DNA from: an uncultured Ruminococcus sp.
GTDB lineage: Bacteria; Bacillota; Clostridia; Oscillospirales; CAG-272
Direction: 5' to 3'
NCBI GenBank assembly: GCA_964622425.1
Contig: CAZUQN010000004.1
Location: 1 to 63,158, forward strand
Length of the DNA: 63,158 nt
Positions 6,035-32,505 of this stretch are shown here, one piece after another. How positions within the stretch are numbered: the stretch's first letter is position 1; each line of letters begins with the position of its first letter. A program made the translations under genes and the position numbers. The notes below the pieces were generated by a model that ran no database searches, had not been told where the DNA came from, and was given only the letters and a program-made list of their open reading frames with translations.

Positions 6035-9000
6035 TTACTCAGCTGCGGGAGTAGAAACGTAACCGAAGTTTACGTCGTCGAACTTAACACCGGTGCCAAC
6101 AGCGTGAGACTTGATCTGGAAGTATACGCCGTCGATCTTGCCAAGTGCAAGGTTGAAGGGATTGGATGCGGTAGCAACGTACTTGCCATTAATGTAGTAG
6201 TGGAGAGTAATGATGTTGCTATCACTAAGCTCGATGCCTACGGTAACGTCGAACCACTCGGTGAAGCCGTCTTCGCCGATAGCTACTTCGCCAAGAGCGA
6301 TGCCGCCAAGACCGGTAACTGTAACCTTGCCGCCAGCGGGAGCAGAAACCTTGAAGAAGCAAGGAACTGCGCCGTCAGACCAGAAGCTCTTGCCTGCGGG
6401 AACGTTAGCTGCAATTCTCATATCGGTATCAACAAGCTGCATCTCGAAGAGAGTATCACAGTTGAGGCTGAGTGAGAAGCTATAGAAGCCGATCGCGTTG
6501 CTTGCAGCGGTGAAGCCCTCGAAGTCATCAACGCCACCGTTGGTAGCGGGAATCCAAAGAGTAGCCTTACCCTGGAGATTTTCTCCGGGTGCGCCCATAT
6601 CGTTGAGAAGTACGTACTGACCGTCAGCGTTGATTACGGGGAAGCCGGTATCCCAACCGTTACGGTCGCCATCCTTTTCCTCGGTGGTTGCGTAGATGTC
6701 GTTCTCGTCGTTGAGATCCATATTTGCATAAGGAGTCTCGCCGGAACCGTCGAAGTTATAGTTCTTATCTACTACGTAAGAGGTGTTGCAATCTGTGCAG
6801 GTGTATGTAGCCTTACCGTCAGCGTATGCCCAAGTGAGATTCTGGTGAGTAAGCTTGGGAGCGATCTCTGCGTTACAGAGAGTACATACGGAAGCGGAAG
6901 CGCAGGTAGCAGGAGATGCTACGTGACCAAGATCACCGTACTCCTTTTCACAACGAGTACATACTGCCTTAGCCTCACAGGTAGCCTCGCCACCCTCGTG
7001 ACCGAGAGCCTCGCCGTCAACCTCGTTACAGATTGTACAATGCTTAGCGGAATCACAGGTAGCTTCTACCCACTCGTGATCACAGGTGCCAAGAGTCCAT
7101 TCCTTGCCTACAGAGAAGCCGAATGCAACGTCATCAAGCTTAATACCACTGCCCTGAGATGCAGTTCTGCCGCTCATGTAGATAGCGCCGATCTTATGAG
7201 TTGCGATAGGCATAATGGAGCTTACCTGACCAACGCTCTTGCCGTTCAAGTAGTAGTTGAGCGTCATGGTGTCGTCGGAGTTAAGCTGGATGGAGATAGC
7301 AACCTCAACCCAACCGGTGAAGTTGTCTTCGCCAACCTCGATAGTGCCAAGAGTCTTGCTGCTGTATCCCTTAACGGTTACCACGCCCGAAGCGGGAGAG
7401 GTCATCTGGAAGATAGTAACTGCAGTCTTGCTCCAATCCCAATCGGCAGTGCCTCTAGCATCAACGAGCTTGAGGTCGAAGGGAGAGGATGCGTTGTCTG
7501 AATACATATTAATCTTGAATGCTATGAAGCCGATTGCGTTGTTAGCGCAAGAGAAGTCAGCAAACGCGGTGGTAGTATTACCGTGAGGAACGAATACCTG
7601 ATACTGCTGATCAACGTCGTCAAGCTTAAGAATCTGATAGATGCTGTTGCCGTCCTCGACTACGATCTCAGCGTTACCGGAACCGTCGTGAGTGAAGCCA
7701 CGGTCACCGTTGGTGGTGCTGTTACCCTGAAGGGTTTCGGAACCGTCGTACCAGTAGTTCTTATCGGTAGTGAACGCCTTGGAGCATACGGTACAAGTAT
7801 AAGTTACAGCGCCGCTGTCGTGTGCGTAGCCAAGAGTATGACCTGCGGTATCGCCGTAAGCCTTACCACATACGTCACACTTAGCGCGAGTGTCACAGCC
7901 TGCAGTGCCGCCGGTGTGACCAAGAGGCTTGCCCTGAGTAGCGCCACAGCCCTCTACGGTACAGGTCGCGGGAGCCTCACAGGTAGCTGCGCCGAAGGTA
8001 TGACCGTTGGGCTCGCCTTCAGTTGCTTCACAGCCGTCTCTCTTACAGGTCTTAGGAGCGGTACAAGTAGCGTCAGCATAGTCGTGACCAAGAGCCTCGC
8101 CCTCGGTAGCGCCACAGCCTTCTCTCTTACAAGTCTTGGGCTCGGTACAAGTAGCCTCTGCCCAATCGTGACCAAGAACTTCTTCACCGGAGGTGAATCC
8201 ACAGCCGGGTCTGGAGCAGGATGCGGGCTCGTTACAGGAAGCGCCGCCAAGCTCGTGGCCGAGAGCGGGCTCGCCGATCATGTTACAAATAGGACAGTAC
8301 TGAGCCTCGGTACAGGTTGCGCTGATCCAAGCGTGCTCGCCTGCTTCCTTAGTTGCGCCGCAAACGGTACAGGTTGCGCCAAGAGTACAGTCGGTGATCT
8401 CATACTTACAAGTATGGATATCATAAGGCCATGCGCCTGCCATCTGGTTATTGTAACCGAAGGTGATGTCATCGAGCATAAGACCCTTACCTGCAGCGAT
8501 TGTAGAACCGGTGAGGTATACAGAGGATACACCGAAGGTGAGAGTAGTAAGAGGCTTGGAAATAGACTCGCAGTACTCGCCGTCGATGTAGTAGTGAACG
8601 GTGATTACACCGTAGTTGCCTTCGCTATTGATGGTGTTGGGATCAAGCTGGATACCGAACTTAACGTCTACCCAACCGGTCCAGCCGTTCTCATCTGTCT
8701 GAATGGTCTTAAGAACGATGCCGTCCCAGCCCTCGATCTGAACGTTGCCATCTTCGTCAGCAGCTCTTACGATGAAGAAGTTGCCTGCGATACACCACTT
8801 GGAAGACCAACGAATGGACTCGCCTGTGGTGGGATCCTTATCGCCAAGAGAGTTATCAACGAACTGAAGTCTCAAGGGAAGGTCCTTGTTATCCATACTG
8901 GAGTTGAACTTGAAGGAAAGGAAGCCAACCGCGTTGTTAGCGCCGTTGAAGCCGCCGTTACCACCGGTATTGTTGGGGATCCAGAGCTGGAGCTGTCCAC

Positions 9001-10381
9001 AGATCTTCTGCCAATCGGTACGTGTATCCTCGGGAACTACGTCGTCATCAGGATCGGGATCAACGGGAGCAGACTGGTAATCAAGAGTGGTCTTAACGAT
9101 AAGCTCGTACTGACCGTCCTTATTGATAACGGGGTAGTCGCCGTTAGCTGTGATGTAACCTCTCTCTGCGTTAACAACGGGAGTCATACCGTTGTAGTCA
9201 GTACCGTCAAGGTAATCAACGCTGGTAAGCGGGAACTCAAACTCACAAGAGGTACACCAGAAGGTGATCTGCTCGGTCTTTGTTACCTTCTCGCCCTCGG
9301 TAGTTTCGATGATCTCACACTTCTGCATAAGGGTATGAGAAGCGTAAATCTCAGTCTCAAGTCCGCAGATAGTACAAATAGCGGGATCAACACAAGTTGC
9401 CTCGGTGAGAATATGGTCAGCGGGAATACCCTCGGAGAGATTACATCTCTTACAGGTCTTGGGATTCTGGCAGTTAGCCTTTTCCCAATCGTGACCTACA
9501 GCCTCAACAACCTCGCCACAGGTGTAGCAGACAGCGGTGTCGTTACAGCCGATCTCGCCATCGCCGAAGTTGTGTCCTGCAGCAGGTGCTATAACGTTGG
9601 TGGAGGAATCGCCGCAAACCTTACAGGTGCTTACGATAGCGCCGTCAACGGTACAGGACTGCTCAACAATTGTGATCTCATACTGGTGAGCAACGGGGTT
9701 GCCCTCGGTTGCCTTACATACGGAACAGGTCTTGGGAGCGGTGCAGGTAGCATCGGTCCAAACGTGGCCAAGAGCTACGCCCTCGGTAGCGCCACAGCCG
9801 GAACAGGTCTTGGGAGCGTCACAGGTAGCATCTACCCATACGTGCTCAAGAGCCTCGCCCTCGGTAAGTCCGCAGTTGTTACAAGTCTTAGGAGCTGCGC
9901 AGGATGCATCTGCCCAGTCGTGACCCTTAGCCTTACCGGTGGTCTCGCCACAGCGGTTACAGGTCTTAGGAGCTGTGCAGGTAGCGTCTGCATAGTCGTG
10001 GCCAAGCTTCTTGCCGTCTTCAAGACCGCAAACTTCGCAATGCTTTGCAGCCTCGCAAGTTGCGTCTGCCCATACGTGAGCATCGGCATCAGCCTCGCCT
10101 TCTGTTGCTTTACATACGGAACAGGTCTTGGGGGACTCGCAGTTAGCGTCTACCCAAGTATGGCCAAGAGCTTCGCCCTCGGTCTCGCCGCACTCACAAG
10201 TCTTGGGAGACTCGCAGGTTGCGTCTGTCCATACGTGCTCATGTCCCATTCCAAATACGCCAAGAACCTTGTCTTTAACGTTGTCGAGAGTATCGACAAC
10301 AGACTCGGGAAGCATATCACAGGAAGTGAACGCAAGCAAAAGGATCATTGATACAAGGATCAATAAAGAAACCTTTTTCAT
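6035..10381 (-). CDS. Giant lipoprotein (1448 aa): Cys/His-rich ~28-aa repeat arrays alternating with three beta-sandwich (LamG/ConA-like?) modules
   Basis: MKKVSLLILVSMILLLAFTSC is a signal peptide plus lipobox. Repeats of type HxWxDATCxxPKTCxxCGxTEGEALG. Modules carry ANNA[IV]GF..FK and end in ..DD[VI].FG[YF]. AAAAGGAG RBS. Confidence 0.9.
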   Translation of the reverse strand: MKKVSLLILVSMILLLAFTSCDMLPESVVDTLDNVKDKVLGVFGMGHEHVWTDATCESPKTCECGETEGEALGHTWVDANCESPKTCSVCKATEGEADADAHVWADATCEAAKHCEVCGLEDGKKLGHDYADATCTAPKTCNRCGETTGKAKGHDWADASCAAPKTCNNCGLTEGEALEHVWVDATCDAPKTCSGCGATEGVALGHVWTDATCTAPKTCSVCKATEGNPVAHQYEITIVEQSCTVDGAIVSTCKVCGDSSTNVIAPAAGHNFGDGEIGCNDTAVCYTCGEVVEAVGHDWEKANCQNPKTCKRCNLSEGIPADHILTEATCVDPAICTICGLETEIYASHTLMQKCEIIETTEGEKVTKTEQITFWCTSCEFEFPLTSVDYLDGTDYNGMTPVVNAERGYITANGDYPVINKDGQYELIVKTTLDYQSAPVDPDPDDDVVPEDTRTDWQKICGQLQLWIPNNTGGNGGFNGANNAVGFLSFKFNSSMDNKDLPLRLQFVDNSLGDKDPTTGESIRWSSKWCIAGNFFIVRAADEDGNVQIEGWDGIVLKTIQTDENGWTGWVDVKFGIQLDPNTINSEGNYGVITVHYYIDGEYCESISKPLTTLTFGVSSVYLTGSTIAAGKGLMLDDITFGYNNQMAGAWPYDIHTCKYEITDCTLGATCTVCGATKEAGEHAWISATCTEAQYCPICNMIGEPALGHELGGASCNEPASCSRPGCGFTSGEEVLGHDWAEATCTEPKTCKREGCGATEGEALGHDYADATCTAPKTCKRDGCEATEGEPNGHTFGAATCEAPATCTVEGCGATQGKPLGHTGGTAGCDTRAKCDVCGKAYGDTAGHTLGYAHDSGAVTYTCTVCSKAFTTDKNYWYDGSETLQGNSTTNGDRGFTHDGSGNAEIVVEDGNSIYQILKLDDVDQQYQVFVPHGNTTTAFADFSCANNAIGFIAFKINMYSDNASSPFDLKLVDARGTADWDWSKTAVTIFQMTSPASGVVTVKGYSSKTLGTIEVGEDNFTGWVEVAISIQLNSDDTMTLNYYLNGKSVGQVSSIMPIATHKIGAIYMSGRTASQGSGIKLDDVAFGFSVGKEWTLGTCDHEWVEATCDSAKHCTICNEVDGEALGHEGGEATCEAKAVCTRCEKEYGDLGHVASPATCASASVCTLCNAEIAPKLTHQNLTWAYADGKATYTCTDCNTSYVVDKNYNFDGSGETPYANMDLNDENDIYATTEEKDGDRNGWDTGFPVINADGQYVLLNDMGAPGENLQGKATLWIPATNGGVDDFEGFTAASNAIGFYSFSLSLNCDTLFEMQLVDTDMRIAANVPAGKSFWSDGAVPCFFKVSAPAGGKVTVTGLGGIALGEVAIGEDGFTEWFDVTVGIELSDSNIITLHYYINGKYVATASNPFNLALGKIDGVYFQIKSHAVGTGVKFDDVNFGYVSTPAAE
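9325..10245 (-). repeat. Intragenic tandem array of ~84-90-bp units encoding the Cys3His repeat (N-terminal cluster of the 1448-aa protein)
   Basis: Roughly a dozen consecutive units of pattern C-x5-C-x(1-2)-C-x(9-11)-H. Smaller clusters at about 7775-8415 and 6790-7095. Confidence 0.7.
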
Positions 10382-10439
10382 TTTAGTTTTCTCCTTTTAA
10401 ATTTTTTGTAGGTTCTAACCTAATAAGGTTACCGAACAT

Positions 10440-10468
10440 ATTATATCATAAATATTTTTAAAGGTCTA
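10440..10468 (-). promoter_or_regulatory. Promoter of the 1448-aa lipoprotein gene
   Basis: Minus-strand TAGACC (-35), 17-nt spacer, TGATATAAT (extended -10). Duplicated at 16401-16429. Confidence 0.5.
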
Positions 10469-10528
10469 GATGTTTTTTGCATTAATTTAATTTTCATTAA
10501 TAATTACTAGAAGGAAAGGAAAAATTTG

Positions 10529-11010
10529 TGCAAAATGCCCCTCTCACCGCTTCGCGGAGCTCTCCCAAAGGCGAGCCTTATATGCGGTGCGAAGCACGAA
10601 GTGTAGGCGCGGGTGGAAAATGCGAAATGCAAAATGCAGAATTAGGAGCGAGGCGAGACAGAGTGTCATCCTGAGCGAAGTGCGTAAGCACGGAGTCGAA
10701 CCCGTAGGGTGACACAGGTGTCAGGATCTACTTAGGCTAACACGTCAACTATCTAAAAACAGTAGTTAAGGAAGCTGTCATCAAATTTGTACTAGATCCC
10801 TTCGTCGCTACGCTCCTCGGTTTTGCTCCGCTTTCACTCCACAAAACTTCGACTTCACTCCGTTTCGCTCAGGATGACACTCTAACCAACTACGCATTAT
10901 TCGGCGGGAGCAAGCCCCCGCCCTACGGGTAAAATTCTCGTCATTAATTTTTGCATTTTGCATTCTGCATTTTGCATTTGCGGACCGTCGAGGACGCCGG
11001 TCCCTACGGT
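10529..11010. repeat. Intergenic mosaic repeat, copy C
   Basis: Heptads AAATGCG AAATGCA AAATGCA (10617-10637) and their inverted counterparts TTTGCATTTTGCATTCTGCATTTTGCATTTGC (about 10950-10981). Shares CACCGCTTCGCGGAGC with copy A and CGGACCGTCG with copy B. Confidence 0.6.
10661..10882. repeat. 222-bp palindromic (MITE-like) element nested inside repeat copy C
   Basis: Perfect 19-bp terminal inverted repeats: GAGTGTCATCCTGAGCGAA (10661-10679) and TTCGCTCAGGATGACACTC (10864-10882). Inner inverted repeat GGATCTA/TAGATCC. No ORF inside. Confidence 0.6.
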
Positions 11011-11065
11011 TTATGTCACACTTTACATACTCTTTTTTTTGCTAACTACCGGTTAGCAAAAGGCA

Positions 11066-11099
11066 TAAAAACAGAGCCCGTGCGGAATGCACGGGCTCT
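11066..11099 (-). terminator. Terminator of the 1731-aa lipoprotein gene
   Basis: AGAGCCCGTGC / GCACGGGCTCT stem, with a T-run on the minus strand. Confidence 0.75.
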
Positions 11100-11144
11100 T
11101 CCCTACCCCTTTCGGGTCTGGGTGAATTTTTAGTTAGTTCTCAA

Positions 11145-14100
11145 TTACTCAGCGTAGTTGATTACAAGGTTGGAGATGAGCATCTCACCCTGGAAGTGAT
11201 AGAGGTTAAGAAGTATGTTCTTAAGCTCTTCAGGAGTTGCGAAGGTGTAGCTCATAGTATGCCATTCGCCATCGAGAACAAGATCAGTTCCCTTAAGCTC
11301 AGGATAATCTTCTGTCGAGCCATCATTGTTAACGTGAGTAGCAACAGTCTTAACCTGAACGTACGCATCCGTCTGGAAGGTCTCGCCGAGATAAGGATCG
11401 TAGAATGTGTATCTGGTGTTATCTTCAACAGTTCCTTCAATCTTGTAATCGAAGGAGAAGCTTGTAACCTTCTTGGTGCTATCAAGAGCAAATCTGAACT
11501 CAGTGAACTGCTCTGCCTCAGTGCCTGCCCAAGCGTAGGTTCTGGAAACGTAGAGTGCCTCTACCTCAGCGCCGTCCTTGTCAGCAAGAACGTATACGGG
11601 AGTACCGCCCTGTGCGTTAACGGTGGTGCACTGATCGCACTGCTTGAACTTGGAATCTACGATAGTCTTAAGAGTCTCGGAGGTAACGTTCTCAGCTGCG
11701 ATCTCGGAGTTGTAGAACTTCTCGGGAGCTACGTAGCCGAATGCGAGATCGTCGAACTTGAAGCCAGTGCCCTTAGCATTGGTCTTACCGGTAATGTAAA
11801 CAGAATTAATTCTGTAGGTGTAGATAGGCATGGTTTCGGTTACAGTTGCAACTGCTACGCCATTATAATAATAGGTAAGAGTCATGGTATTGTCATCATG
11901 AAGTTCAATCTTGATAGCAATATCGAGCCAACCGGTCCACTGGTCTGCATCAAGCTCTACAACGGCAACAGTAACGCCCTTGTAACCAGTAACCTTAGCA
12001 GTAGTCTGATTCTCGGAGCTTATTTTCTCAATGTCGAGAACAGCGAAAGAGCAATCAGTCCAGCCATCCTTATTAGGACCACCGCTCCAAGCGCCGGTTT
12101 CTCTTTCAGCATTAAGCTTGAACTGAAGGCCATTATTATTCACGTTTTTCGCATTAACCTTGAAGGAAAGGAAACCAACGGAATTATTAGCGCAAGAGAA
12201 ATCATTAAGGAGCGCGGGGGTACCCTTAAGAGGAACCCAGATCTGCTGCTGACCCTTTGCTGCACCATCCTCATCAGGACTAATCATTTCATACTGTCCC
12301 TGCTCGTTAATGGTAAGAACGTAGTCAACACCGTTGTTAACAACTTCAAGGTTGTTCTTATCGGTACCGTCTGCATAGTAACCGGTAAGGTTGTAGGATT
12401 CGCCACAACCGTTAGCGCAGGAGTAAACGAAGGTGTTCTTAGCTGCGTCCCAAGCGGAACCAGTAAGGTTATGGCCGGTAGCCTTAGCTGCTACTTCGCC
12501 ACAAACGGAGCACTTAGCATCCTCGGTACAGGTTGCGTCCTCAGCGGTGTGACCCTTAGCGGAAGCGTAAACGTAACCGCAGCTGCATTTCTCAGCCTCG
12601 GTACAAGTAGCATCAGACTTTTCATGAGCCTGACCGTCGAGCTGGAAGTGAACCTTTTCAGTGGTGCAAGCAAATACGATGTCATCGATTGCAAAGCCTG
12701 CGCCCTTAGTAGTGTTAGAGCTCTTGATGTAAACGGATCTGAGTATACCGGTATGAATATCCATAGCGCCGGTAGCAGTGCCTGCATACTTACCGTTTAC
12801 AAGGACGTTGATAGTGATTTTCTTCTCAGAGGTGAGCTGGATCATAAGAGCAATGTCGATCCAACCGTCATTCTCAGAAAGGGAAACAGTGCCAAAATTG
12901 GTGTTGTAGTTATCAATGCCGCCCTTGATGGTAACGGAACCGTCTGCTATCTTGTTGATGTTGAGTACGTTAATGTCACTCGGACCCCAGCCTGACCAGT
13001 TGGAGCCATTTCTTCTCTCAGCAAAAATAAACTCGATGTCACCGTCGGTGTTGTTGGGCTTAATCTTGAATGCGAATACGCCGAATGCGTTGTTTTCGCA
13101 GGAGAAGTCCGCAAGAGTGTCGGGATTATTGACATTGCTGGGGACCCAAAGCTGAGCCTGAGCGTTGCTGGGAGCGTCAGATTTATTGAAGTAATCGTAG
13201 TAACCGTTGGAGTTATCGCCGGTGTAAGAGGCAGTATCACCACTTGCGTTAGTGAAGGTCTCGGTACCGTCGAAGTAATGACCTGCAAGGTTGTAAGAAG
13301 CGCCGCAGTTGTTAACGCAAGCGTAAATCATAGTCGTAGCAGTTGCATCGTAACCGGAAACTGCAAGGCTATGACCGAGAGCCTTCTCTGCTACTTCGCC
13401 ACAAACGGAGCACTTAGCATCCTCAGTACAGGTTGCCTTGCCGTTGGTGTGACCAAGAGCGGGAGAAAGAACATAACCACAAGAGCACTGCTCGGGCTCG
13501 GTACAGGTTGCTTCGGAAACATCGTGGTTCTGACCGTCGAAGAAGAAGTGACCTGCTTCAGTGGTGTAACCCATAACGATATCATCCATGATGATACCGG
13601 TGTTAGCAGTATAGGTCCAACCGTTGATATAGAGCGCTCTAATATCGCCGGAATCAATAGTCATGTCACCGGAGAAGGTGCCGACGTACTCAGCGTTGAT
13701 GTAGTAGTGAGCAGTGATGGTGTTGTCATCCTTGAGCTGGATGAAGATCTTAACGTCGAACATCTCAGACCAGCCGTCCTTAGCGGGGATGGTAACAAGC
13801 TCAGTGCCTGCGTTGAAGCCACCCTTAAGAACGATGCCGTCCTCAGAGTAAGCGCCTACGTTGAGAAGCTTAATCTCGCTGGTGCCCCAACCGGTCCAGT
13901 CAGCCGCGCCTCTTTCCTTAGCTGCGGAAACATTGAACGCGGTATCAACGTTAGTCTGCATCTTGAATGCGATAACGCCGGTAGCGTTGTTAGCACAAGA
14001 GAAGCCCTGAAGGCCCTTGCCTGCGCCGTTGGAAGGAATCCAGAACATATGCTGAGAACCGGCCTTACCGGAATCAGTGTACTCATACCAACCGGTCTTG

Positions 14101-16340: not shown

Positions 16341-16400
16341 TTTCGTTTTCTCCTTTTAAATTTTGTTAGGTAATTTTCCCCTATAAAGGTTACCGCAATT

Positions 16401-16429
16401 ATTATAACACAAAGATTTAAAAAGGTCTA
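16401..16429 (-). promoter_or_regulatory. Promoter of the 1731-aa lipoprotein gene
   Basis: Minus-strand TAGACC, 17-nt spacer, TGTTATAAT. Lies inside the block duplicated from 10381-10510. Confidence 0.5.
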
Positions 16430-16746
16430 GATGTTTTTCTCATTAATTTAATTTTCATTAATAATGTCCATTCTGTGAACGTTTTTTTGTGCAATTTACC
16501 CACGCGCGAATTAATAATAGGAAGAAATGAAATTTTATGAAAAATTCAAAGCTTGATAAAAAGCAACTGCTGCCGAGCGAAAACACAGCACTAATTTCCT
16601 GAGGCTTTTCTAACGCAAAAAACACTGAAAAAACATTTTAAGGCGCATTTCGTAACCTATCATTTACATATCCAAGCAACAAAAAGAACAGAGCCCACTC
16701 GGAGCTCTGCTCTTGTCACTTATCGATTTCTTTAGGTTCGCGATGT

Positions 16747-20244: not shown

Positions 20245-20454
20245 TTCGAAAGTCCTCCTCGATATATTTCATAGCTTTTTCAACTTTTTTATGGCCGCAG
20301 AAAATGCTACGGCTATTATATTATACTATAAAATAAGTCTAATTTCAAGCCTAAATCCGAAATATGACTATTTTCTACGTTTTGTGAATATTTTTCCGCT
20401 TTGAATGAATATTTTACCGTTTTTGTTTGTGCAGTTTCTATAACTTCCGGAAGA

Positions 20455-20494
20455 AAAAATAAAAAGCACACCACCCCGTGAAGGAGTGGTGTGC
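20455..20494 (-). terminator. Terminator of the 784-aa lipoprotein gene
   Basis: GCACACCAC / GTGGTGTGC stem, with a T-run on the minus strand. Confidence 0.7.
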
Positions 20495-20512
20495 GAATGG
20501 GTTATTGCAAAA

Positions 20513-22867: not shown

Positions 22868-22973
22868 TTTTTAATCCTCCTATATATATTTTTGGTTTTA
22901 AACAAATTAAGTGGTTTTGCGGTTTTTACCGCGTTTTGGGTGTAAAATGCAAATTTACGTTTGCATATTCACC

Positions 22974-24545: not shown

Positions 24546-27238
24546 TTCTTCGCCTCCTTTGATCTTCTCTTGAAAAGGCTGACTATGTCCGCCCACTTGA
24601 GCTTTCTTAAAACGGTGTCTATAACGTATATAGCCGCCGCAATGGCAAGGAACGGAACTGTAAAGTAAAGAACGTAGGTCGCGATCTTATTTTCATCCAC
24701 CTCGAGAGTGATATTTCCGTCCGTGAATACGTTTCCGTGATTTCTCATAAACGCATAGATGGGAGCGGGAGAATAGGTCACGAATTCATCATACTCGGGT
24801 GAGTAAGAGATCGTATGCACGCTCTCGGAGGTATAGGACTTGGTGGTCCAATCGTACGAGACCTTGACAAGATACTTGCCTATCACATCGGTACGGAATC
24901 TGTAGAAGTAACGGTAGGAGTCAAACGTGAGCTTCTCGGTTACCTCGCTTCCGTCGGGGAATACGATGGTAACGTTCATCGTCGCATCGGGGTTAAGCAC
25001 TGCGGGGATTATTTCCACGCCCGAGTACTTACCGTCGTAGCTGACGCTGACGGTATAGGGATAATCGATCTTGGTCTTGGGAGTATTAGTGGAAAGAATG
25101 TTTCCAAGGAAGAGAGCTCCGCTCTCATCCGCCCAATTTCTTACCCAATCTCCGCCAAGATTGGTGGTAAGAGTCGCTACCCTGCCGTTACCGTATGACC
25201 AATAGGTGTACAGGGGCGCCTCGACCTTGCCTCCGCCGGATTTTACGTACTCAACACTGAGGACGGTCTCTGCGCTCGCCTTTGTCTTGGCGTACACGTA
25301 GCCGCCGACGTTGCCGAGCTTTTCAACGCCCTCAAGGACGGGGTCGTTCTCCTTTGAGACGATTACCGGAATATCTCCGATGATCTCGGTGTCGGTAACC
25401 TCATCAGCCACGTCGCCGAGTATAAGCGACTCAAGATCGCTTGAGCGCTGGCAGAAGTAGTAGATGCCGCCGCCCGCGGCAGCGATAGATCTCATAGTAT
25501 CGACACCTAAGGTGTCGGTGTTACCCGTATTAAGGGTAGAAACGGTTATATTGTTGGCGCGAAGCACCTCTGTCTCGGTAATTGGATCGTCGGAGAGCGT
25601 CTCGCCGCCCTCGAAGGACATACCGTCCGAGATGAGAATTACCTGCTTCTCGCTAAAGCTCATCGGGATCATAAGCTCGCCTGCGGCACGCAAAGCCGCA
25701 CCGATCATAGTGCCCTGAGTAACGTCGAGATTTGCCACCGCCTTTAGCGCGCTCTCAACGTTTTCCTTGCTGGCTATCTGAGGCTGAGCAAGGTGATAAA
25801 CCTCACCTGAGAAGGTGACGATGGAGAAATAGTCGTTCTCGTTAAGCAGACCGAGCAGGTAGGTAGCGGAAAGCTTTGCCATTACAAAGTAGTCCGCATT
25901 CTTGAACTCCATACTGCGCGAGCTATCGATAACGAGGGTATAAAGCTTGGGATCAGCGTCGTCGTTGCCGAACTTGGCGGGGAGCATATTGCCGATCTTG
26001 GCGGCAAGCTCGCTCTCGTTATTCTGCAATCCGTTGTTGCCGACCGTAATCAAGCTCTTACCGAACTCGGAAACTACCGTATCGAGTGACTCGATGAACG
26101 TATCGGCGTTGGTTATTTTTTCGACGTCAACGTTTGAGAGAATGATCTCGTCATACTTGCAGAGATCCTCTACCGCAAACGGAACGTTGAAGGCAACGGG
26201 CTTGGGATTCGGGTTCGACATCGTGGGCTTGCTATCCTTCGGCTTGACGTAGGTGTCGATCACGGCATCCTCGCCGTAAAGTCCTTTGACGATCTGCTCG
26301 TCATCTGCTGACGAAGTGATAAGAAGCACGTTAAGCTTTCCGTTAACACGCTGAGTAAAGGAAAGGGTGTTGTTGTGCTCCGAAGCGTCGGAGGTTGCGA
26401 CGAAGGAAACGGAGTAATCGTTCTCGCCCTCCTCCTCGGTATCGAGCTCAAGGTTCACAACGTTGAAGCCCTTGGTAAGCTCGACTGTCCTGCTTATGAA
26501 AGATTCGCCATTCTTAGTGAGGTTGAGAATCACGTTTCCGTCATAAGAGGATTCTATGAGAAGATCCGCTGTGGTTTTGCTTCCGCGGTAAACCGAGGGG
26601 TTAAAATCAACCGAGGTAAGCTGGATCTCCTTTTCATCTTCGGAAAGATTGTTATCAACGTAGACAACGTCGATATAAACGTCTTTTGCCTTCAGGTCCT
26701 CGACAATGCGGACAAGCTCAGAGCCCGCCTCGCTGTCGGTGGACATACCGTCGGTGATAAGAACAATACGCTTGATCGAGCTCTCGCCGAAGAGAGAGTC
26801 GGCATAGCGAAGCGCAGATACGATGTCTGTGCCGCTGTCGTTTACGTTGTTGTCCTTAACCGAGGTTATGCGCTCACCTAGGGGTGTGTGAAGTCTGTAA
26901 TTTTTGCCGAAGGTTATAACTCCCATCTCGGAGTTTCTCGGCAGCTCGTCCTCAACCTTGGCGATATACTCGTCTACGAGGTCGAGCTTACCGTCCATCG
27001 AATAGGAGACGTCCGCAACTACGTAGAGCTCGGTCTCGGTGATGACGGTTACGTTGGACATACCTGCCGCGGCAAGCACACACAGAAGCACGATAACAAT
27101 ATGCAGGATAAGCGCAACTGATGCCGCGCGGGATTTATTCTCCTTGCGTATCGCTATAAAATACGGCACTAAGACAAGCGCGAGCATCGGGATAAGCAAA
27201 AGGAGTAAGAATGGATTATCGAAGCTGATATTTATCAT
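24542..27238 (-). CDS. Membrane protein with two von Willebrand factor A domains (BatB/BatC-like position)
   Basis: MIDAS motifs VADVSYSM and VIDSSRSM, each followed by ...T...ITDG / ISDG. Two N-terminal and one C-terminal hydrophobic helices. The track ORF starts at TTG 27265; I prefer ATG 27238 (MINISFDNPF...). The start is uncertain. Confidence 0.85.
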   Translation of the reverse strand: MINISFDNPFLLLLLIPMLALVLVPYFIAIRKENKSRAASVALILHIVIVLLCVLAAAGMSNVTVITETELYVVADVSYSMDGKLDLVDEYIAKVEDELPRNSEMGVITFGKNYRLHTPLGERITSVKDNNVNDSGTDIVSALRYADSLFGESSIKRIVLITDGMSTDSEAGSELVRIVEDLKAKDVYIDVVYVDNNLSEDEKEIQLTSVDFNPSVYRGSKTTADLLIESSYDGNVILNLTKNGESFISRTVELTKGFNVVNLELDTEEEGENDYSVSFVATSDASEHNNTLSFTQRVNGKLNVLLITSSADDEQIVKGLYGEDAVIDTYVKPKDSKPTMSNPNPKPVAFNVPFAVEDLCKYDEIILSNVDVEKITNADTFIESLDTVVSEFGKSLITVGNNGLQNNESELAAKIGNMLPAKFGNDDADPKLYTLVIDSSRSMEFKNADYFVMAKLSATYLLGLLNENDYFSIVTFSGEVYHLAQPQIASKENVESALKAVANLDVTQGTMIGAALRAAGELMIPMSFSEKQVILISDGMSFEGGETLSDDPITETEVLRANNITVSTLNTGNTDTLGVDTMRSIAAAGGGIYYFCQRSSDLESLILGDVADEVTDTEIIGDIPVIVSKENDPVLEGVEKLGNVGGYVYAKTKASAETVLSVEYVKSGGGKVEAPLYTYWSYGNGRVATLTTNLGGDWVRNWADESGALFLGNILSTNTPKTKIDYPYTVSVSYDGKYSGVEIIPAVLNPDATMNVTIVFPDGSEVTEKLTFDSYRYFYRFRTDVIGKYLVKVSYDWTTKSYTSESVHTISYSPEYDEFVTYSPAPIYAFMRNHGNVFTDGNITLEVDENKIATYVLYFTVPFLAIAAAIYVIDTVLRKLKWADIVSLFKRRSKEAKK

Positions 27239-29099
27239 AGCAATACACCATCCATTCTGCCGCAAATAGTAACGCCGCGAGGATAAACAGAAGCGTCATA
27301 GGATCATACCTACCGTCGCTTCCCTCCTCTGTCGCCTCGCCGTGTATGCTGATCGACTCAGCCACGGTCTCGGTCGGTCGCTCCTCCTTCGGCACGGAGG
27401 AATAAACGTAATATGCAGGTCTCTCTGTGCCGGAGATATCAACCGTTATCTTGTATTCTCCGACCTTTGTAAGCTCAAACTCACTGACCGCTCCGGTCGT
27501 ATCTGTGTATATCTCTTCCCCGTCGGGAGTTTCAACACGAATACTGTTGCAACCGGATATTACGTTGATCTCTGCGGTGTCACCGCAGAAGTAATCGGTT
27601 TTCTCAATAACCTCGGGGAAGGAATAATCAAGAAGATTTCCAAGCATCGCAAGGTAATCAAGAGATAGGGTTATATCGGAATCGTGAAGGTTGAATGCAA
27701 AGACCACCTCACGGTTGCCGTAGCTGTTAACGCCCGTGAATATCACGGGATTGCCCTTGTAGGAATAAAGAGTGGTAAAGTCGGCGTAAAGACCGCACTT
27801 TACGTATCCCGATACGTAGATATCGTCGCCTACCATATTCGCGGTAAGCTTACGCACAATGCTCGCCGTGGAGCTCGAGAGCGTAATGGTATCCGCAGTC
27901 TCGAGAGTTACCTCTCCCTGCACGCTGAAGCCGCTGCCCTCAACGCTCGCGCCGGGGCCTATAAACCAGACCGAGCCGTCTGACGGAAGGGTTGCGGGAT
28001 CATAGCAATCAAAGATATAAAGCGAATATCCGTTGACGGTCTTATCAAGCTTAGCAAGGCGTTCTTCCTCTTTTTTGTAAGCTTCTGTTGTCATAACGGT
28101 AATATCCGCAGTGCTGACCGCATCGATCGCTGCCTCAATGAGGAAGGGAGCGTCGCTGACCAGAAGCGCGTTATAGGAGTTCTCGCTCTCGATGTCATAG
28201 ACCGTTACGGAATTATCCTTCCCGTAAGAATCCTCTATGGGAGCCTTTACGGTAACCGAATAAAACTCCGACGCCTCCACGGTAAAGGTAAAGGGTGTGG
28301 GTACGTCCTTAAATGCCTGCACCTTGGTAGCGCTGAGAGGCTCATCCGCGCCGTCGACGTAGATCTCCACGTCAACGAGTCTGTCCGCGCCGTAGGAAAT
28401 GATATTTCCGCTGACCGTAAGGTTGGTCTTGCCCGACTTGAAGTAGATAACGTCCTCAACCGAGACGTTATTCTCGCCTCTTGAAACGTTGACAAGAGTC
28501 AGGTTTTCAACCGTGTTGTAATCTGTATCGGTAACAAGATAAACGCGTGTGGAGGGGTTATCGTCAAAGTAGCCCTGAGCCACACCGATGGCATCGGTAT
28601 AATCGATAGCTCCGTCGGTAGACTGAAGCGATGCGAGTCTGTCGGAAACGCGGGACTTATCGTCCGCCTTCTCAAGAAGCACCTCGGTGGTGCCGCCAAC
28701 GTAAACTACGGTATAGGTGCTGCCCTCCTTAGCCTCGTCGACCACCTTGAGTATTTCCTCCTTTGCGAGGTCAAAGCGGGTCTTGCCGTCCATCTGCATA
28801 TTCATACTCGCCGAGCCGTCAAGAATAAAGCAATATTCGTGAGCCGCTCCGGGGAGCACGATGATAGGATGCGCGACCGCAAGAGAGAGAGCCGCGACAA
28901 GAAGAAGCTGAAGGATAAGGCTGATAATACCGGTTATCCTCGAGAGCGGATTTCTCCTCTTTAAGAATCTCTCGCTAAGACGCCAGAGGAAGGTGGAGGC
29001 TATGGTCTGCTCCGCATATCTGTTTTTGATAAGGTATACGATGATAAGAATCGGAATACCTATGAGGCCGAGAAGACCTATGGGATAAAGAAACGTCAT
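27216..29099 (-). CDS. BatA-like membrane protein: aerotolerance-regulator N-terminal domain plus a VWA domain
   Basis: MTFLYPIGLLGLIGIPILIIVYLIKNRYAEQTIASTFLWRL matches the BatA_N pattern. MIDAS motif ILDGSASM. C-terminal TM helix. Its start overlaps the DUF58 stop as ATGA (29096-29099). Confidence 0.85.
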   Translation of the reverse strand: MTFLYPIGLLGLIGIPILIIVYLIKNRYAEQTIASTFLWRLSERFLKRRNPLSRITGIISLILQLLLVAALSLAVAHPIIVLPGAAHEYCFILDGSASMNMQMDGKTRFDLAKEEILKVVDEAKEGSTYTVVYVGGTTEVLLEKADDKSRVSDRLASLQSTDGAIDYTDAIGVAQGYFDDNPSTRVYLVTDTDYNTVENLTLVNVSRGENNVSVEDVIYFKSGKTNLTVSGNIISYGADRLVDVEIYVDGADEPLSATKVQAFKDVPTPFTFTVEASEFYSVTVKAPIEDSYGKDNSVTVYDIESENSYNALLVSDAPFLIEAAIDAVSTADITVMTTEAYKKEEERLAKLDKTVNGYSLYIFDCYDPATLPSDGSVWFIGPGASVEGSGFSVQGEVTLETADTITLSSSTASIVRKLTANMVGDDIYVSGYVKCGLYADFTTLYSYKGNPVIFTGVNSYGNREVVFAFNLHDSDITLSLDYLAMLGNLLDYSFPEVIEKTDYFCGDTAEINVISGCNSIRVETPDGEEIYTDTTGAVSEFELTKVGEYKITVDISGTERPAYYVYSSVPKEERPTETVAESISIHGEATEEGSDGRYDPMTLLFILAALLFAAEWMVYCYDKYQLR

Positions 29100-29986
29100 T
29101 TCACTACCCCCTCTTCCTCGAGCCTGCCGAAGATGATCTCACCGATATCGTCCTCTGCGGATGCGAGAATGTAATTCGCGCCGCGGGAGAAGCAATAGTC
29201 ACGGATCCTGTCCGTAGCGTATCCGAGCGCCGCTCTGTACGCCTTGAGAATATCTCGGTCGATGTTCTTTTTATAGGTTTTGTCATAATTCTCCGAGTCA
29301 TAGAGATGCATCTTGCCCGTAAGCTGAGGCGCAAGCTCCCCTCGGGATAATATCTGTATGCAAAATACGTCGCGCTTCTTGCCGATTAGGTGGTCTATCG
29401 CGGTCTCGTAGTCATTATCGGTGAGGAAATCGGAGATAATAACCGACATACCGTCACCCATTCCGACAACGGAGGGGAGGATAGCCTCGCTTATGTAGCT
29501 GTCGCCGTCAAACTCAATTTCGTTAAATTTGCCTACTCTGTTGAAGAAGGACTCCTTGCCCACCGTAGGAGGAATAAGCTCGGTGACCGTCCTGTCCTTG
29601 ATGACGTAGACGGATACTCTGTCCATCTCGTTCACCGACATATACGCAAGGGCGGCGGCGAGGCGGACTGCCTGCTCTGCCTTCTCTCCCCTGCCGTAGT
29701 CCATAGAACGGCTGGCATCGATATAAATTCTCGTGTGCATCTGTCTCTCGTCAAGGAAAAGCTTGAGATAAAGCTTATCAAAGCGAGCGTAGGAATTCCA
29801 GTCGATCTTGGTTATATCGTCGCCGGGCATATAGTCGCGGTAATCAGCAAATTCGCAAGAAGAACCAAACGAGCCGTATTTGCTCTGTTTATTGCCGCCG
29901 AACATTCCGGCGACGTTGTTCTTGAGGAGTGTCTCGAGGATATCAAGCCTTGAGAGGAACTCTTCGTTGATTACATACTTTTTCAT
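29096..29986 (-). CDS. DUF58 family protein
   Basis: Signature FADYRDYMPGDDITKIDWNSYARFDKLYLKLF. The MoxR stop and this gene's start abut as TAAATG (29984-29989). Confidence 0.9.
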   Translation of the reverse strand: MKKYVINEEFLSRLDILETLLKNNVAGMFGGNKQSKYGSFGSSCEFADYRDYMPGDDITKIDWNSYARFDKLYLKLFLDERQMHTRIYIDASRSMDYGRGEKAEQAVRLAAALAYMSVNEMDRVSVYVIKDRTVTELIPPTVGKESFFNRVGKFNEIEFDGDSYISEAILPSVVGMGDGMSVIISDFLTDNDYETAIDHLIGKKRDVFCIQILSRGELAPQLTGKMHLYDSENYDKTYKKNIDRDILKAYRAALGYATDRIRDYCFSRGANYILASAEDDIGEIIFGRLEEEGVVK

Positions 29987-30970
29987 TTAGGGCTTTTTGG
30001 TTTCCTTTACAAGCATTTCGATCACGTCGTCAACGGTGAGCTTATCGTTGATAGCCGCGTAGTTGACCTTTACTCTGTGACGGAGAACGGGTCCTGCAAG
30101 AGCGTCGATATCCGCGTAGGATACGTTGTAGTTGCCGTGCATAAGAGCGCGCACCTTAGCGGCGGTAATAAGCGCCTGAGCGGCACGGGGAGACGCGCCG
30201 TACTTGATGTACTTAGATGCGGTTGCGGACGCGCCGTCGAGCTCGGGGTGAGTCGCGGAAACGAGATTTACGGCATACTCAAGCACGTCATCGATAACGG
30301 GAACACCTGATGCGAGCTGACGCATACCGAGTATGGTCTCACCGTCCATAACCGTCTCTGCGGTCTCAAGCATGGTAGCCTGAGTCATGGTAACTATATT
30401 CTTGAGCTCCTCGGTGCCGGGGAACTTCATAATAAGCTTGAACATAAATCTGTCCATCTGAGCCTCGGGAAGCGGATAGGTACCGTCCTGCTCGATGGGG
30501 TTCTCGGTCGCCATTACAAAGAAAGGCTCGGAGATCGCGTGAGTAGCTCTGCCGATGGTAACCTTGTGCTCCTGCATCACCTCAAGCATCGCGGACTGAG
30601 TCTTGGGTGTAGCTCTGTTGATCTCGTCTGCAAGAACGAGGTTTGCAAAGATAGGACCTCTGCGGAATACGGTACGCATATTGCCGTCCTTATCCTTCTG
30701 AATGATGTTGGTACCCGTAACGTCGGAGGGCATAAGGTCGGGGGTGAACTGAATTCTCGAGAAAGGAAGGCCGAGGGTACGGCTGAGAGAACGGACAAGT
30801 CTGGTCTTACCTACACCGGGTACACCCTCAAGAAGCACGTTTCCGCCCGAGATAATGGCGATGATAATATTTTCGATAACCTCCTCGTTACCGACGACGT
30901 CCTTTGCGAGCTCTGCCTTTATGCTCGCAATTCTGGCACTAAAGCTTTTTGCATTTTCCATGTTTTCCAT
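29987..30970 (-). CDS. MoxR-family AAA+ ATPase
   Basis: Walker A LLEGVPGVGKT, Walker B/sensor LVLADEINRATPKTQSAMLEVMQE, and a C-terminal AAA lid (GASPRAAQALI). Confidence 0.92.
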   Translation of the reverse strand: MENMENAKSFSARIASIKAELAKDVVGNEEVIENIIIAIISGGNVLLEGVPGVGKTRLVRSLSRTLGLPFSRIQFTPDLMPSDVTGTNIIQKDKDGNMRTVFRRGPIFANLVLADEINRATPKTQSAMLEVMQEHKVTIGRATHAISEPFFVMATENPIEQDGTYPLPEAQMDRFMFKLIMKFPGTEELKNIVTMTQATMLETAETVMDGETILGMRQLASGVPVIDDVLEYAVNLVSATHPELDGASATASKYIKYGASPRAAQALITAAKVRALMHGNYNVSYADIDALAGPVLRHRVKVNYAAINDKLTVDDVIEMLVKETKKP

Positions 30971-30989
30971 TTATATATCCTCACTTAAA

Positions 30990-32393
30990 TTAATCGTTTT
31001 TGGGCGCGCCGTCGAAGAGGGAGCCAAAATACTCCTCTGCCGCGTCGGAGAGCTCATCCGAGGCCTTGCCGTCGGTTATCTTTTCATTTGCCTTGGCAAA
31101 ATAATCGCCGAGAATCTCGCCAAGAGGTCTGTGTGTATTCGTATCGGGGTCAAAGACAAGGTCGTTGCTGCCGTAGATGACGTCGCCCGTGCCAAGACCG
31201 CCCGAGCCTATGTTTTTATCGGGCTCTTCGCCTTCGCCGTCCTCAGTCGGAGGCACAGTTTCGGGATCGCGAATATCGATATCGGTGTCGGGATCGACCA
31301 CGGTAAGGTCGTCCTCGGTGATGCCGAAGAGATTGCAAAGCTTGTTAATGACTATCCTCATCGTGGATCGGTTAACGTTCTGGACGATGACCTCTGCGTT
31401 AAGAGCGGTTGCCGCAGTGGAAAACTCGTCCTCAATATCCGAGCCTTCTCTGATAGCCGCAGTCAGACCCTTAAAGAGAAGATAAAGAGTGTCGCCAGAG
31501 TGAACTCCCGAGGCAGCGAGATAGGAATCAAGCTCATCAGCAGTGAAGTCACGGTCATCCGAGCCCGAAGCCGCAACAGACTCACCAAGAGCGACAAGAG
31601 CGTTCTTGGAGCCCGAGCCCGCAAGCTCGCCAAGAGCCTTCGCAAGTTCCTTTACGGCATCGTTCGAGCTCTCAAGGAACACGACCGACAGGGACTCTGC
31701 GGAGTTTGCCTCGACGAGAGCGGCGTTGATGCCGAGCACCGTGGATATGGCCTTTGTCTTCATCTCGGAGAGATAATCCGACGACTCGACAAATTCGAGT
31801 AAGGAATTAAGCTCGGTGAGGACCTTTTCTCTCAAGGTATCGTTTATGTATGCGTTCTCGACGGTAGTGATCAGCTCGCCGATGGCGGTGATTATCCACT
31901 GCTTGTCAAACTCGTCGATCACCGACTCGCCTCCGTCTGCTTTGGCAGGGACGATGAGTGCGCCGGCGATGCATCCGACGGAAATACAGAACACAAGAAG
32001 TCCTGCGACAAGCTGACGAGCCTTGAGGGATTTTATCGGCTTTTCGCCAAGACGCAGGTCGGCATCCTCGCGCTGAAGACGGGCAAATCCGCTCTCGTCG
32101 TCGCGGAGCTCGACCATTGTGCTGACCTTCTCGTCAAGACCGTAGAGCGAGTCAAGACGCTTGGCAAGCCGCTTGTCCGACGGCATGAATATGAAATAGA
32201 GAATCGTGGAAAGCGCCGCCGCCAATACTGCCCCAAGCACGTAAAAGACCGGCTTTACCGCATTGCCGCCAAGCTTACCCGCAAGTATGACTGCGGCAAG
32301 GCCGACGACCGATACGCCGACGCCTAGAAGCGCGGATACGGTGATTGCCTGCACTCTGACTCTCCTTTTGAATTTGTTAAAGCTTTTGCTCAT
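30990..32393 (-). CDS. Membrane protein of unknown function (467 aa), first gene of the MoxR/VWA operon
   Basis: Three hydrophobic helices in the first ~150 aa, then a helical, acidic soluble region. 19-nt gap to MoxR containing an RBS. Promoter directly upstream. Confidence 0.75.
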   Translation of the reverse strand: MSKSFNKFKRRVRVQAITVSALLGVGVSVVGLAAVILAGKLGGNAVKPVFYVLGAVLAAALSTILYFIFMPSDKRLAKRLDSLYGLDEKVSTMVELRDDESGFARLQREDADLRLGEKPIKSLKARQLVAGLLVFCISVGCIAGALIVPAKADGGESVIDEFDKQWIITAIGELITTVENAYINDTLREKVLTELNSLLEFVESSDYLSEMKTKAISTVLGINAALVEANSAESLSVVFLESSNDAVKELAKALGELAGSGSKNALVALGESVAASGSDDRDFTADELDSYLAASGVHSGDTLYLLFKGLTAAIREGSDIEDEFSTAATALNAEVIVQNVNRSTMRIVINKLCNLFGITEDDLTVVDPDTDIDIRDPETVPPTEDGEGEEPDKNIGSGGLGTGDVIYGSNDLVFDPDTNTHRPLGEILGDYFAKANEKITDGKASDELSDAAEEYFGSLFDGAPKND

Positions 32394-32428: not shown

Positions 32429-32505
32429 AATTCACACCCAATTTTATCACACGGTCTTTCCTTTGTCAAGTAAAATAAAGCCGTTTCCGATGGTGGGTGT
32501 GAATT
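32429..32505. promoter_or_regulatory. Perfect 12-bp inverted repeat bracketing the operon promoter (candidate operator pair)
   Basis: AATTCACACCCA (32429-32440) and TGGGTGTGAATT (32494-32505). One arm abuts the -10; the other lies 24 nt upstream of the -35. Confidence 0.4.
32441..32469 (-). promoter_or_regulatory. Promoter of the MoxR/VWA operon
   Basis: Minus strand: TTGACA, 17-nt spacer, TAAAAT with an extended -10 TG. Confidence 0.55.

Follow-up and report, generated by a model that had tools for sequence, protein, structure and literature searches.

The locus examined here is found in an uncultured Ruminococcus sp. (assembly GCA_964622425.1), on contig CAZUQN010000004.1, positions 1-63,158. 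This whole stretch of 63,158 nt is referred to as the window, and the interval under study, which contains a Bat-like operon of MoxR, DUF58 and VWA genes followed by lipoprotein genes, spans positions 6035-32393. Apart from antisense open reading frames (ORFs) described below, every large ORF in the interval lies on the minus strand, and the genes number ten (Table 1). A preliminary description of this DNA had counted eleven consecutive genes; its statement that no opposite-strand gene interrupts the run was confirmed. The identities it gave for the first five products, a protein with three transmembrane (TM) segments, a MoxR protein, a DUF58 protein, a BatA_N-VWA protein and a double-VWA protein, agreed with our Pfam searches and with three predicted TM segments. 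The six upstream genes were also found to abut or overlap as described: in order, 19 nt separate the first pair and 0 nt the second, and the next three pairs overlap by 4 nt, 23-50 nt and 4 nt (ATGA). As had been reported, a lipobox is present in the product of the last of these six genes and in those of all four genes downstream: SFSAC/G in p523, LTSC/G in p784, LASC/E in p1165 and FTSC/D in both p1731 and p1448 (the slash follows the lipobox Cys).

Table 1. Features of the interval 6035-32393 and its immediate surroundings, in window coordinates.
Feature	Position	Strand	Basis or remark
Promoter-like site, TTGACA-17-TAAAAT with TG, 11/12 matches	32441-32469	-	Consensus scan only; ~48 nt 5' of gene 1
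Gene 1, p467, 3-TM protein with 320-aa acidic C-terminal domain	30990-32393	-	Hydropathy, positive-inside rule
Gene 2, MoxR-type AAA+ ATPase	29987-30970	-	Pfam AAA_3 and AAA_lid_2
Gene 3, DUF58 protein, VWA-like, predicted cytoplasmic, DxSxS metal-ion-dependent adhesion site (MIDAS)	29096-29986	-	Pfam DUF58
Gene 4, BatA_N double-TM anchor, VWA, ~525-aa ectodomain, C-terminal TM	27216-29099	-	Pfam PF07584, VWA_2
Gene 5, double-VWA membrane protein, ~795-aa ectodomain, TM anchors at both ends	24542-27265	-	Pfam VWA_2, VWA
Gene 6, p523 lipoprotein	22974-24545	-	AlphaFold 2 (AF2) model, Foldseek, family alignment
Gene 7, p784 acidic lipoprotein, one His/Cys module and beta-sandwich chain	20513-22867	-	AF2 model, Foldseek, homologue loci
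Intrinsic-terminator-like hairpin, 12-bp stem, 8 GC pairs, T run	20466-20494	-	19 nt past p784 stop
p1165 lipoprotein, two His/Cys modules	16747-20244	-	Own promoter-like site and terminator
p1731, Cys3His-repeat lipoprotein	11145-16340	-	Own promoter-like site and terminator; adjoins conserved unit, not a member
p1448, Cys3His-repeat lipoprotein	6035-10381	-	Own promoter-like site
TetR gene	32580-33137	-	Directly outside the interval, upstream side
Two tandem heparinase II/III-like genes	1370-3298 and 3383-5437	-	Downstream of the interval

The core proteins of the operon were examined in detail. The gene 2 product matched Pfam AAA_3 (3.4e-61, 205 bits, cutoff 27) and AAA_lid_2 (57 bits), and harbours a Walker A motif, GVPGVGKT, at residue 49. 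The DUF58 match of the gene 3 product had an E-value of 3.1e-32. With AAA_3 and its lid, the Walker A motif and adjoining DUF58 and VWA genes, the ATPase displays the features of the MoxR-proper group. Concerning gene 4, the product matched PF07584 (BatA_N) with 45.5 bits (cutoff 25.9) as well as VWA_2; the score for TIGR02226 was slightly under its cutoff, and the NCBIfam BatA equivalog model gave 28 bits against a cutoff of 380. Gene 5 likely starts at the ATG at 27238, as called in its homologues, which results in a protein of 898 aa. The DxSxS motif is intact in the DUF58 protein, the BatA-type protein and both VWA domains of the double-VWA protein. It is kept in 68 of 68 DUF58 homologues, and 74 of 75 homologues of the double-VWA protein have at least two.

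In terms of topology, the MoxR and DUF58 proteins are predicted to be cytoplasmic. The positive-inside rule predicted for both VWA proteins two N-terminal TM segments with a cytoplasmic loop between them, then an extensive acidic ectodomain and one more TM segment at the C-terminus, and for the gene 1 protein a 58-aa basic cytoplasmic loop with the 320-aa acidic domain outside the membrane. In the BatA-type protein BB0173, the VWA domain has been found by experiment to face the periplasm (PMC5700661). Taking into account both the rule and this precedent, we infer that the VWA ectodomains of genes 4 and 5 face outward. The gene 1 protein gave nothing above threshold in searches of Pfam, NCBIfam and PDB, which included a search with a gene-1 profile. 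Its homologues, at a median identity of 27%, retain a C-terminal motif, SGGxGxGxxxYGSNDxVYDPD...YGE.

Pfam and NCBIfam scans of the five lipoproteins gave nothing above threshold, and no significant match was returned when PDB was queried with the sequences of p523, p784 and p1448. The preliminary description had regarded them as one family of Cys/His lipoproteins with common His/Cys-rich motifs and near-identical signal peptides. In BLASTP comparisons, paralogy was limited to p1448 and p1731; p784 and p1165 have only an N-terminal module in common, and p523 matches none of the others. The single family was thus rejected, and the motifs proved to be three unrelated things, a 26-aa repeat in p1448 and p1731, a module of ~50 aa in p784 and p1165, and an eight-Cys patch in p523. 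As for the signal peptides, p1448 and p1731 are identical in their first 27 residues, p784 is merely similar, and those of p1165 and p523 are not near-identical to the rest.

Long ORFs are also present on the plus strand opposite lipoprotein genes, at 7583-10351 (922 aa), 13278-16310 (1010 aa) and 20486-22825 (779 aa). We rejected these as genes, as homologues, lipoprotein signal peptides and confident folds favour the minus strand.

The AF2 model of p523 had a mean pLDDT score of 87. Foldseek comparison of the model indicated two beta-sandwiches in the N-terminal part, with similarity to PPC, collagen-binding and C-CPE domains. Eight conserved Cys residues, revealed by the family alignment, lie in the Cys-rich alpha/beta domain at the C-terminus, for which Foldseek gave no match among solved structures. 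The p523 family is well conserved at full length, and the lipobox Cys is invariant across it. In the case of p784 (mean pLDDT 79), the model contains a string of beta-sandwiches resembling CUB, HA70 and ColG-CBD. Judging from these models, p523 and p784 appear to be made of beta-sandwich domains of a binding type.

To define transcription units, the minus strand was scanned for terminator-like and promoter-like sites. Strong terminator-like hairpins were found after p784 (Table 1), p1165 (16714-16684) and p1731 (11099-11073), and promoter-like sites before p1165 (20348-20320), p1731 (16429-16401) and p1448 (10468-10440). No strong terminator was detected inside the six-gene operon, and neither a terminator-like nor a promoter-like site was found in the 106-nt gap between p523 and p784. 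As a strong promoter-like site precedes gene 1, no strong terminator was found inside and one follows p784, a seven-gene unit ending at p784 is predicted. The genes for p1165, p1731 and p1448 would then be three monocistronic lipoprotein genes past this unit. A single operon of ten or eleven genes was rejected on account of the three strong internal terminators and the promoter-like sites.

We then investigated whether this arrangement is conserved. Loci were anchored on p523, with one genome per species, and 80 loci with 10-kb flanks out of 188 relatives were analysed; all p523-carrying relatives analysed were metagenome-assembled genomes (MAGs) of gut Clostridia. Contig JAFTKM010000008 encodes proteins 97-99% identical to those of the window's contig. 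Of the species-level loci, 63 had 8.2 kb or more of upstream flank, and in every one of these the six genes were colinear. Median identities across loci were 75% for MoxR, 64% for DUF58, 45-46% for the VWA proteins, 39% for p523 and 27% for gene 1. Among the approximately 75 loci with enough downstream flank, the next gene on the same strand encoded a lipoprotein with 1-8 His/Cys modules in 71, as identified with an iterated hidden Markov model (HMM). The same HMM detected no module-bearing ORF elsewhere in those 71 loci. In other species, the seventh gene is most often p1165-like. The gap before the module gene had a median of 72 nt and was at most 30 nt in 21 of 71 loci. In 42 of 59 loci, the 200 nt past the module gene contained a terminator-like hairpin, compared with 10 of 71 for the gap ahead of it. 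The flanks are not conserved: the upstream neighbours of 60 loci fell into 39 clusters, the largest with 6 members, and a TetR gene was upstream in 4 loci only.

Nine loci lacked the module, four of which had too little downstream flank. The exceptions at position 7 were a Cys3His-repeat lipoprotein (L053, with L055 similar), another lipoprotein (L074-L076) and nothing (L063). L053 and L055 are from distant species, and their seventh genes (about 11810-15318 and about 11937-18100, respectively) have Cys3His repeats in place of His/Cys modules. The two stalk-type modules thus seem interchangeable at this position.

The linkage was also examined from the side of the partner. All five full-length homologues of p784 that were sampled on long contigs (28-55% identity) were encoded by the seventh gene of such an operon, in varied flanks. 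In three loci (L170, 13205-14263; L172, 12574-13614; L173, 13474-14520), a gene of ~350 aa with weak CarboxypepD_reg, Big_1 or SpaA-like matches lies 14-50 nt past the p784-family gene and may be an eighth member of the operon.

The situation was different for the Cys3His-repeat proteins. Among the five lipoproteins, only p1448 and p1731 possess a C-x5-C-x2-C repeat with a 26-aa period and the consensus GHxWxxATCxxPKTCxxCGxxxGxAL. The 19 repeats of p1448 (15 strict and 4 variant) form three arrays alternating with three copies of a ~240-aa domain, and p1731 combines 13 strict repeats with four such ~240-aa domains and one further domain at its C-terminus. The two proteins are about 30-34% identical. 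A profile of the ~240-aa domain gave nothing significant against PDB. The repeat profile gave solely insignificant matches (E-values of at least 0.011) to the CxxCG 'knuckle' of rubredoxins; by analogy with the His/Cys modules treated below, the 26-aa arrays are probably zinc-knuckle stalks too.

Upstream of the two genes, ~130 bp of DNA including promoter, 5' untranslated region and ribosome-binding site are near-identical (10382-10510 and 16341-16470). Together with the identical N-termini, this suggests a recent duplication or gene conversion limited to the 5' end.

In contrast to the p784/p1165 type, a Cys3His protein was encoded no more than 10 kb from the operon in just 8 of 80 loci. Over 1,600 proteins were found to carry the repeat, in many architectures, with LRR, SLH, dockerin, CAP or transglutaminase domains. 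In the clade nearest to the window (p523 at least about 60% identical), the operon is often followed by a Cys3His-repeat gene as the eighth. Seven full-length homologues of p1448 were sampled (including P0080, on two contigs), and three of these are encoded by the eighth gene after the operon. In three others (L164/L165, L167 and L168), the flanks are colinear with the window, with identities of 72-78% for aromatic-amino-acid genes, 74-77% for an aminotransferase, 62-64% for TetR and 64-71% for the heparinase. In these relatives, the 1448-type lipoprotein gene lies directly between the TetR and heparinase genes, and the whole Bat block and the His/Cys-module genes are absent from the locus, the block possibly lying elsewhere in the genome. 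The operon and the His/Cys-module genes are therefore present together or absent together at this locus, and the 1448-type gene stays. Taken together, p1731 and p1448 are most likely separate, independently transcribed surface proteins, whose adjacency to the operon would reflect the history of the locus and not a functional link.

In these relatives, a heparinase II/III-like gene is conserved beside the 1448-type gene, a hint of a glycan-degradation neighbourhood and of a glycan-related role for the 1448-type protein. Between the p1731 terminator and the p1448 promoter lies an element of ~370 nt (10614-10979), which occurs once in the window. It contains nested perfect inverted repeats of 20 nt (10660-10679 and 10864-10883) and 18 nt (10625-10642 and 10962-10979), and folds far better than shuffled sequence (z = -4.9). 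It could be a structured element, or one resembling a miniature inverted-repeat transposable element, where the Bat block meets the ancestral 1448-type gene.

The preliminary description had proposed that a MoxR/DUF58/VWA complex could mature, metal-load or anchor the Cys3His-repeat proteins, and had raised the question of whether homologues of the lipoproteins co-occur with MoxR-DUF58-VWA operons elsewhere. Neighbourhood analysis supported a linked lipoprotein set, composed of p523 and the p784/p1165 type, and the latter linkage was evident from the operon side as well as the partner side. It gave no support to Cys3His proteins as clients, which do occur scattered without MoxR/VWA neighbours at the loci without the Bat block, as the sampled p784 family does not. 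Because the conserved linkage is with the p784 type and not with the Cys3His type, the client idea is partly supported, for a different protein.

We next considered what the His/Cys module might be. The module is ~50 aa in length with the consensus x[HC]xHT[YF]xxxWxxDxxxHW[HY]AATCx[HC]x(8-9)HxDx[ND]xDGxCDVCx[YW]. There is one copy in p784 (DNA at 22622-22789) and two in p1165 (19819-20136), and no Pfam or NCBIfam model matches either this module or the Cys3His repeat. Module counts were taken from the iterated HMM, as a strict regular expression undercounted badly. Over 297 copies, the six positions H4, H17, C23, H35, C44 and C47 each show at least 95% conservation, and positions 2 and 25 are occupied by either His or Cys. 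Such swaps at two positions are typical of metal ligands, not of disulfides.

A profile of 18 modules matched a single PDB entry, 9qa6, in two regions, with borderline significance (E = 3.6e-4, 23.8 bits). The motif HxxxxxWxxDxxxHWHxC...CxxCGY is common to the module and these regions, which are ZBD1 and ZBD2 (alias CTD2 and CTD4) of the Thomasclavelia ramosa IgA protease. Tetrahedral structural zinc sites of 2His+2Cys (in one case 3Cys+1His) in a new metal-binding fold have been predicted for these domains (PMC12237041, PMC12415215). One of these two studies proposes that the ZBD/CTD regions are 'periscope' stalk domains, and according to the other, no disulfide bonds were seen in the experimental structures or predicted models. 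The zinc of the protease domains is likewise a prediction (PMC12237041).

The resemblance extends to all-Cys/His ligand sets, an extracellular location, an anaerobic gut Firmicute as host and a placement between anchor and functional domains. The protease differs in being sortase-anchored with the domains at its C-terminus, whereas the modules here are N-terminal, following the lipid anchor in 1-8 tandem copies; zinc is predicted in both. We consider that the His/Cys module is probably a structural zinc 'periscope' stalk unit, not a substrate for metal insertion, and its placement right after the lipid anchor in 1-8 copies fits this. In one further locus, L161, the region downstream of the Cys3His gene contains an ORF (14584-23067) that exceeds 2,800 aa and has 14 His/Cys modules spread over its length.

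Comparison with known systems places the operon closest to the Bat operons of Bacteroides fragilis, Leptospira and Borrelia, which consist of genes for MoxR, DUF58 and BatA-E. The core order is the same: MoxR-proper, DUF58, BatA_N-VWA and a second membrane VWA protein. In both, the VWA domains probably face the extracytoplasmic side, as shown for BB0173. The operon differs from the Bat operons in its additional first gene for a 3-TM protein, in having two lipoproteins in place of BatC-E, in the much larger size of the VWA proteins (627 aa for the first and ~900 aa for the second, which has two VWA domains), and in its host, which is probably a monoderm Clostridium. None of the ten proteins of the interval matched TPR, SH3 (BatC, BatE) or BatD families in Pfam or NCBIfam.

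The pairs CbbQ/CbbO, NorQ/NorD, RavA/ViaA and CoxD/CoxE combine a MoxR AAA+ ATPase with a VWA protein and act as chaperones in maturation or at metal sites. In common with these, the operon encodes a MoxR-family ATPase and a MIDAS-bearing VWA-like adaptor, here DUF58, a combination thought to remodel a specific target. The targets of the chaperone pairs, enzymes of the cytoplasm or membrane, are in the compartment of the ATPase, whereas the candidate partners here are outside the membrane. Coupling would thus have to cross the membrane, unlike in the CbbQ/CbbO-type systems.

The moxR1-DUF58-VWA operon of mycobacteria adjoins ripAB, and MoxR1 interacts with exported RipA, according to the passage of PMC12067865 that cites Bhuwan 2016. 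This is also a MoxR-proper/DUF58/membrane-VWA operon linked to a gene for an exported envelope protein. The mycobacterial client is a Tat-exported NlpC/P60 peptidase, whereas the candidate partners here are predicted Sec-type beta-sandwich lipoproteins with zinc-type modules. To our knowledge, the MoxR1-RipA relation is the only client-like one with experimental support.

In Bifidobacterium, the PFNA cluster comprises pkb2, fn3, aaa-atp (the MoxR gene), duf58 and tgm, and its MoxR protein has been proposed to aid the folding of the surface protein (PMC8430577). Here too MoxR and DUF58 are encoded beside a large secreted multi-domain surface protein, an FN3 protein in that case, in a gut Gram-positive bacterium. 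The PFNA cluster differs in that it includes a kinase and a transglutaminase-like membrane protein, and no BatA-type VWA proteins, lipoproteins or His/Cys modules. MoxR1-RipA (PMC12067865) and PFNA (PMC8430577) appear to be precedents for MoxR-proper operons tied to an exported or surface protein.

We found no description of this Clostridial cluster in the literature. The best-supported interpretation is that it represents a Clostridial variant of the Bat/MoxR-proper type with two dedicated extracytoplasmic lipoprotein partners. With moderate confidence, we propose that the unit is a seven-gene Bat-like envelope operon whose lipoprotein partners work in the following manner, with the Cys3His proteins being separate. 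MoxR and DUF58, the latter as a cytoplasmic VWA-like adaptor, would work on the loops that the three membrane proteins expose to the cytoplasm. The VWA ectodomains with their MIDAS motifs, pointing outward, would bind, assemble or hold p523 and the p784-type lipoprotein, which are predicted to be in the same compartment. The outcome would be a binding structure displayed on the surface, in which the His/Cys modules would serve as structural zinc stalks and not as substrates for metal insertion.

A more specific version of this proposal is an 'inside-out' surface assembly machine, in which ATP-driven remodelling by MoxR/DUF58 would switch the outward MIDAS/VWA domains, and these would capture, release or activate a dedicated zinc-stalk lipoprotein adhesin. 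This version is speculative, and we regard it as unlikely. If true, it would provide the first defined extracytoplasmic client of a Bat/MoxR-proper system and a bacterial analogue of integrin-like VWA regulation.

Several points weigh against the proposed partnership of the seven genes. All support for a physical or functional interaction comes from comparison and prediction, and the organisms are all uncultured and represented by MAGs. The topology is likewise a prediction. We know of no Bat-type system in which a route from the cytoplasmic ATPase to extracytoplasmic partners has been established. With regard to transcription, the 106-nt gap between p523 and p784 contains a weak AT-rich hairpin followed by TTTT, a terminator-like hairpin precedes the seventh gene in 10 of 71 loci, and the gap before it exceeds 300 nt in six. 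As the loci were anchored on p523, the statistics cover p523-containing operons only. The similarity of the module to the IgA protease is borderline, and AF2 models the p784 module poorly (pLDDT 37-62).

The module is also not specific to the operon, being carried by about 3,139 representative protein clusters. In a metagenome scan with a query built from 7 closer module sequences, for which the 80 best matches were kept, Bat genes were near the module in 7 loci and none were nearby in the other 73; many of these contigs were redundant ones from the human gut, and as the sample is biased, the figure is a rough one.

The strongest of the alternatives is that there is no coupling, the six-gene operon being a self-contained envelope or stress module of the aerotolerance type and the lipoprotein being kept by shared descent or transcription. 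The seventh gene does vary widely: complete genes encode about 640-1,800 aa, with 1-8 modules and different C-terminal families, and no module is present in L063 and L074-L076. Moreover, the Bat operons of Bacteroides and spirochaetes lack such a lipoprotein (PMC3557215, PMC5700661). Nevertheless, the position of the gene is kept in about 95% of the loci, across lineages in which gene 1 retains no more than ~27% identity and the flanking genes have been exchanged. The terminators mostly sit past the lipoprotein gene and not ahead of it, all five sampled p784-family members are linked to the operon, and the relatives with colinear flanks lack the operon and the His/Cys-module genes jointly. We consider the absence of coupling unlikely, while giving it some weight.

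The client set suggested in the preliminary description would include all Cys/His lipoproteins, with p1731 and p1448 matured, metal-loaded or anchored by the MoxR/DUF58/VWA complex. The genes do adjoin on the same strand, the closest clade often has the Cys3His gene in eighth position, L053 and L055 carry Cys3His repeats at position 7, and MoxR-VWA pairs are known as maturation or metal-site chaperones. For p1448 and p1731 this is largely refuted by the three relatives with colinear flanks that retain the 1448-type gene without the operon at the locus. The low frequency of Cys3His proteins near the operon, the promiscuity of the repeat, the promoter-like sites of p1731 and p1448 and the terminator of p1731 argue in the same direction, and the His/Cys-module proteins too are mostly unlinked to Bat genes. 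In addition, MoxR and DUF58 are predicted in the cytoplasm, while the proteins would be exported via Sec-type lipoprotein signals. A client set of this extent is improbable. Metal loading by the operon is unlikely as well, since most occurrences of either Cys/His module lack Bat genes nearby.

A role in zinc handling, with the multi-module lipoprotein (up to 8 modules, perhaps with two sites each) as a surface zinc binder or buffer and the Bat-like complex acting in metal homeostasis, seems quite improbable. Eight conserved or semi-conserved His/Cys ligand positions per module, two of them swapping, up to eight module repeats and the metal-binding nature of MIDAS domains would agree with such a role, but sites made up of Cys and His alone typically hold zinc in a structural role, an argument made for the IgA protease domains (PMC12415215). 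The conserved block contains neither a transporter nor a metal regulator, and the variation from 1 to 8 modules is spacer-like. Finally, a MoxR-vWA biological-conflict (defence) system, of the type reportedly described by Kaur et al. in 2020, is very improbable: a secondary Pfam match to bpMoxR (2.4e-16) and a weak VMAP-M1 match in one distant gene-1 homologue (E = 0.009) point that way, but AAA_3 is by far the best match of the ATPase, the DUF58 and BatA_N context is that of the classical MoxR-proper type, Pfam/NCBIfam scans revealed no effector, beta-propeller or NTPase-sensor domains, and the gene order is stable rather than variable.

Bat-type operons are widespread, and their function has not been settled since 1999, partly for want of a defined partner or substrate. 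The Clostridial variant offers two conserved extracytoplasmic lipoproteins, predicted to be co-transcribed with the operon, as concrete partner candidates that are likely to be tractable as soluble ectodomains. Two abundant, uncurated Cys/His modules of gut Firmicute surface proteins could also be told apart, one of which is tied, at the borderline significance noted above, to the periscope domains of the IgA protease. The results caution that Cys/His motifs alone are poor grounds for inferring a dedicated metal chaperone.

Some features elsewhere in the window may be mentioned. The sole match in an Rfam scan of the window was a tRNA at 880-953 on the plus strand. A plus-strand ORF at 42902-46474 encodes a protein of 1190 aa with an unusual large architecture, combining an AhpC/TSA-redoxin (thioredoxin-like) domain with Big_1 Ig-like domains. 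Further along the same strand, a 2759-aa protein (49955-58234) with subtilase S8, PA and Fn3-like domains and eight BspA-type LRR stretches is followed by a 979-aa SBP_bac_5 protein (58248-61187).

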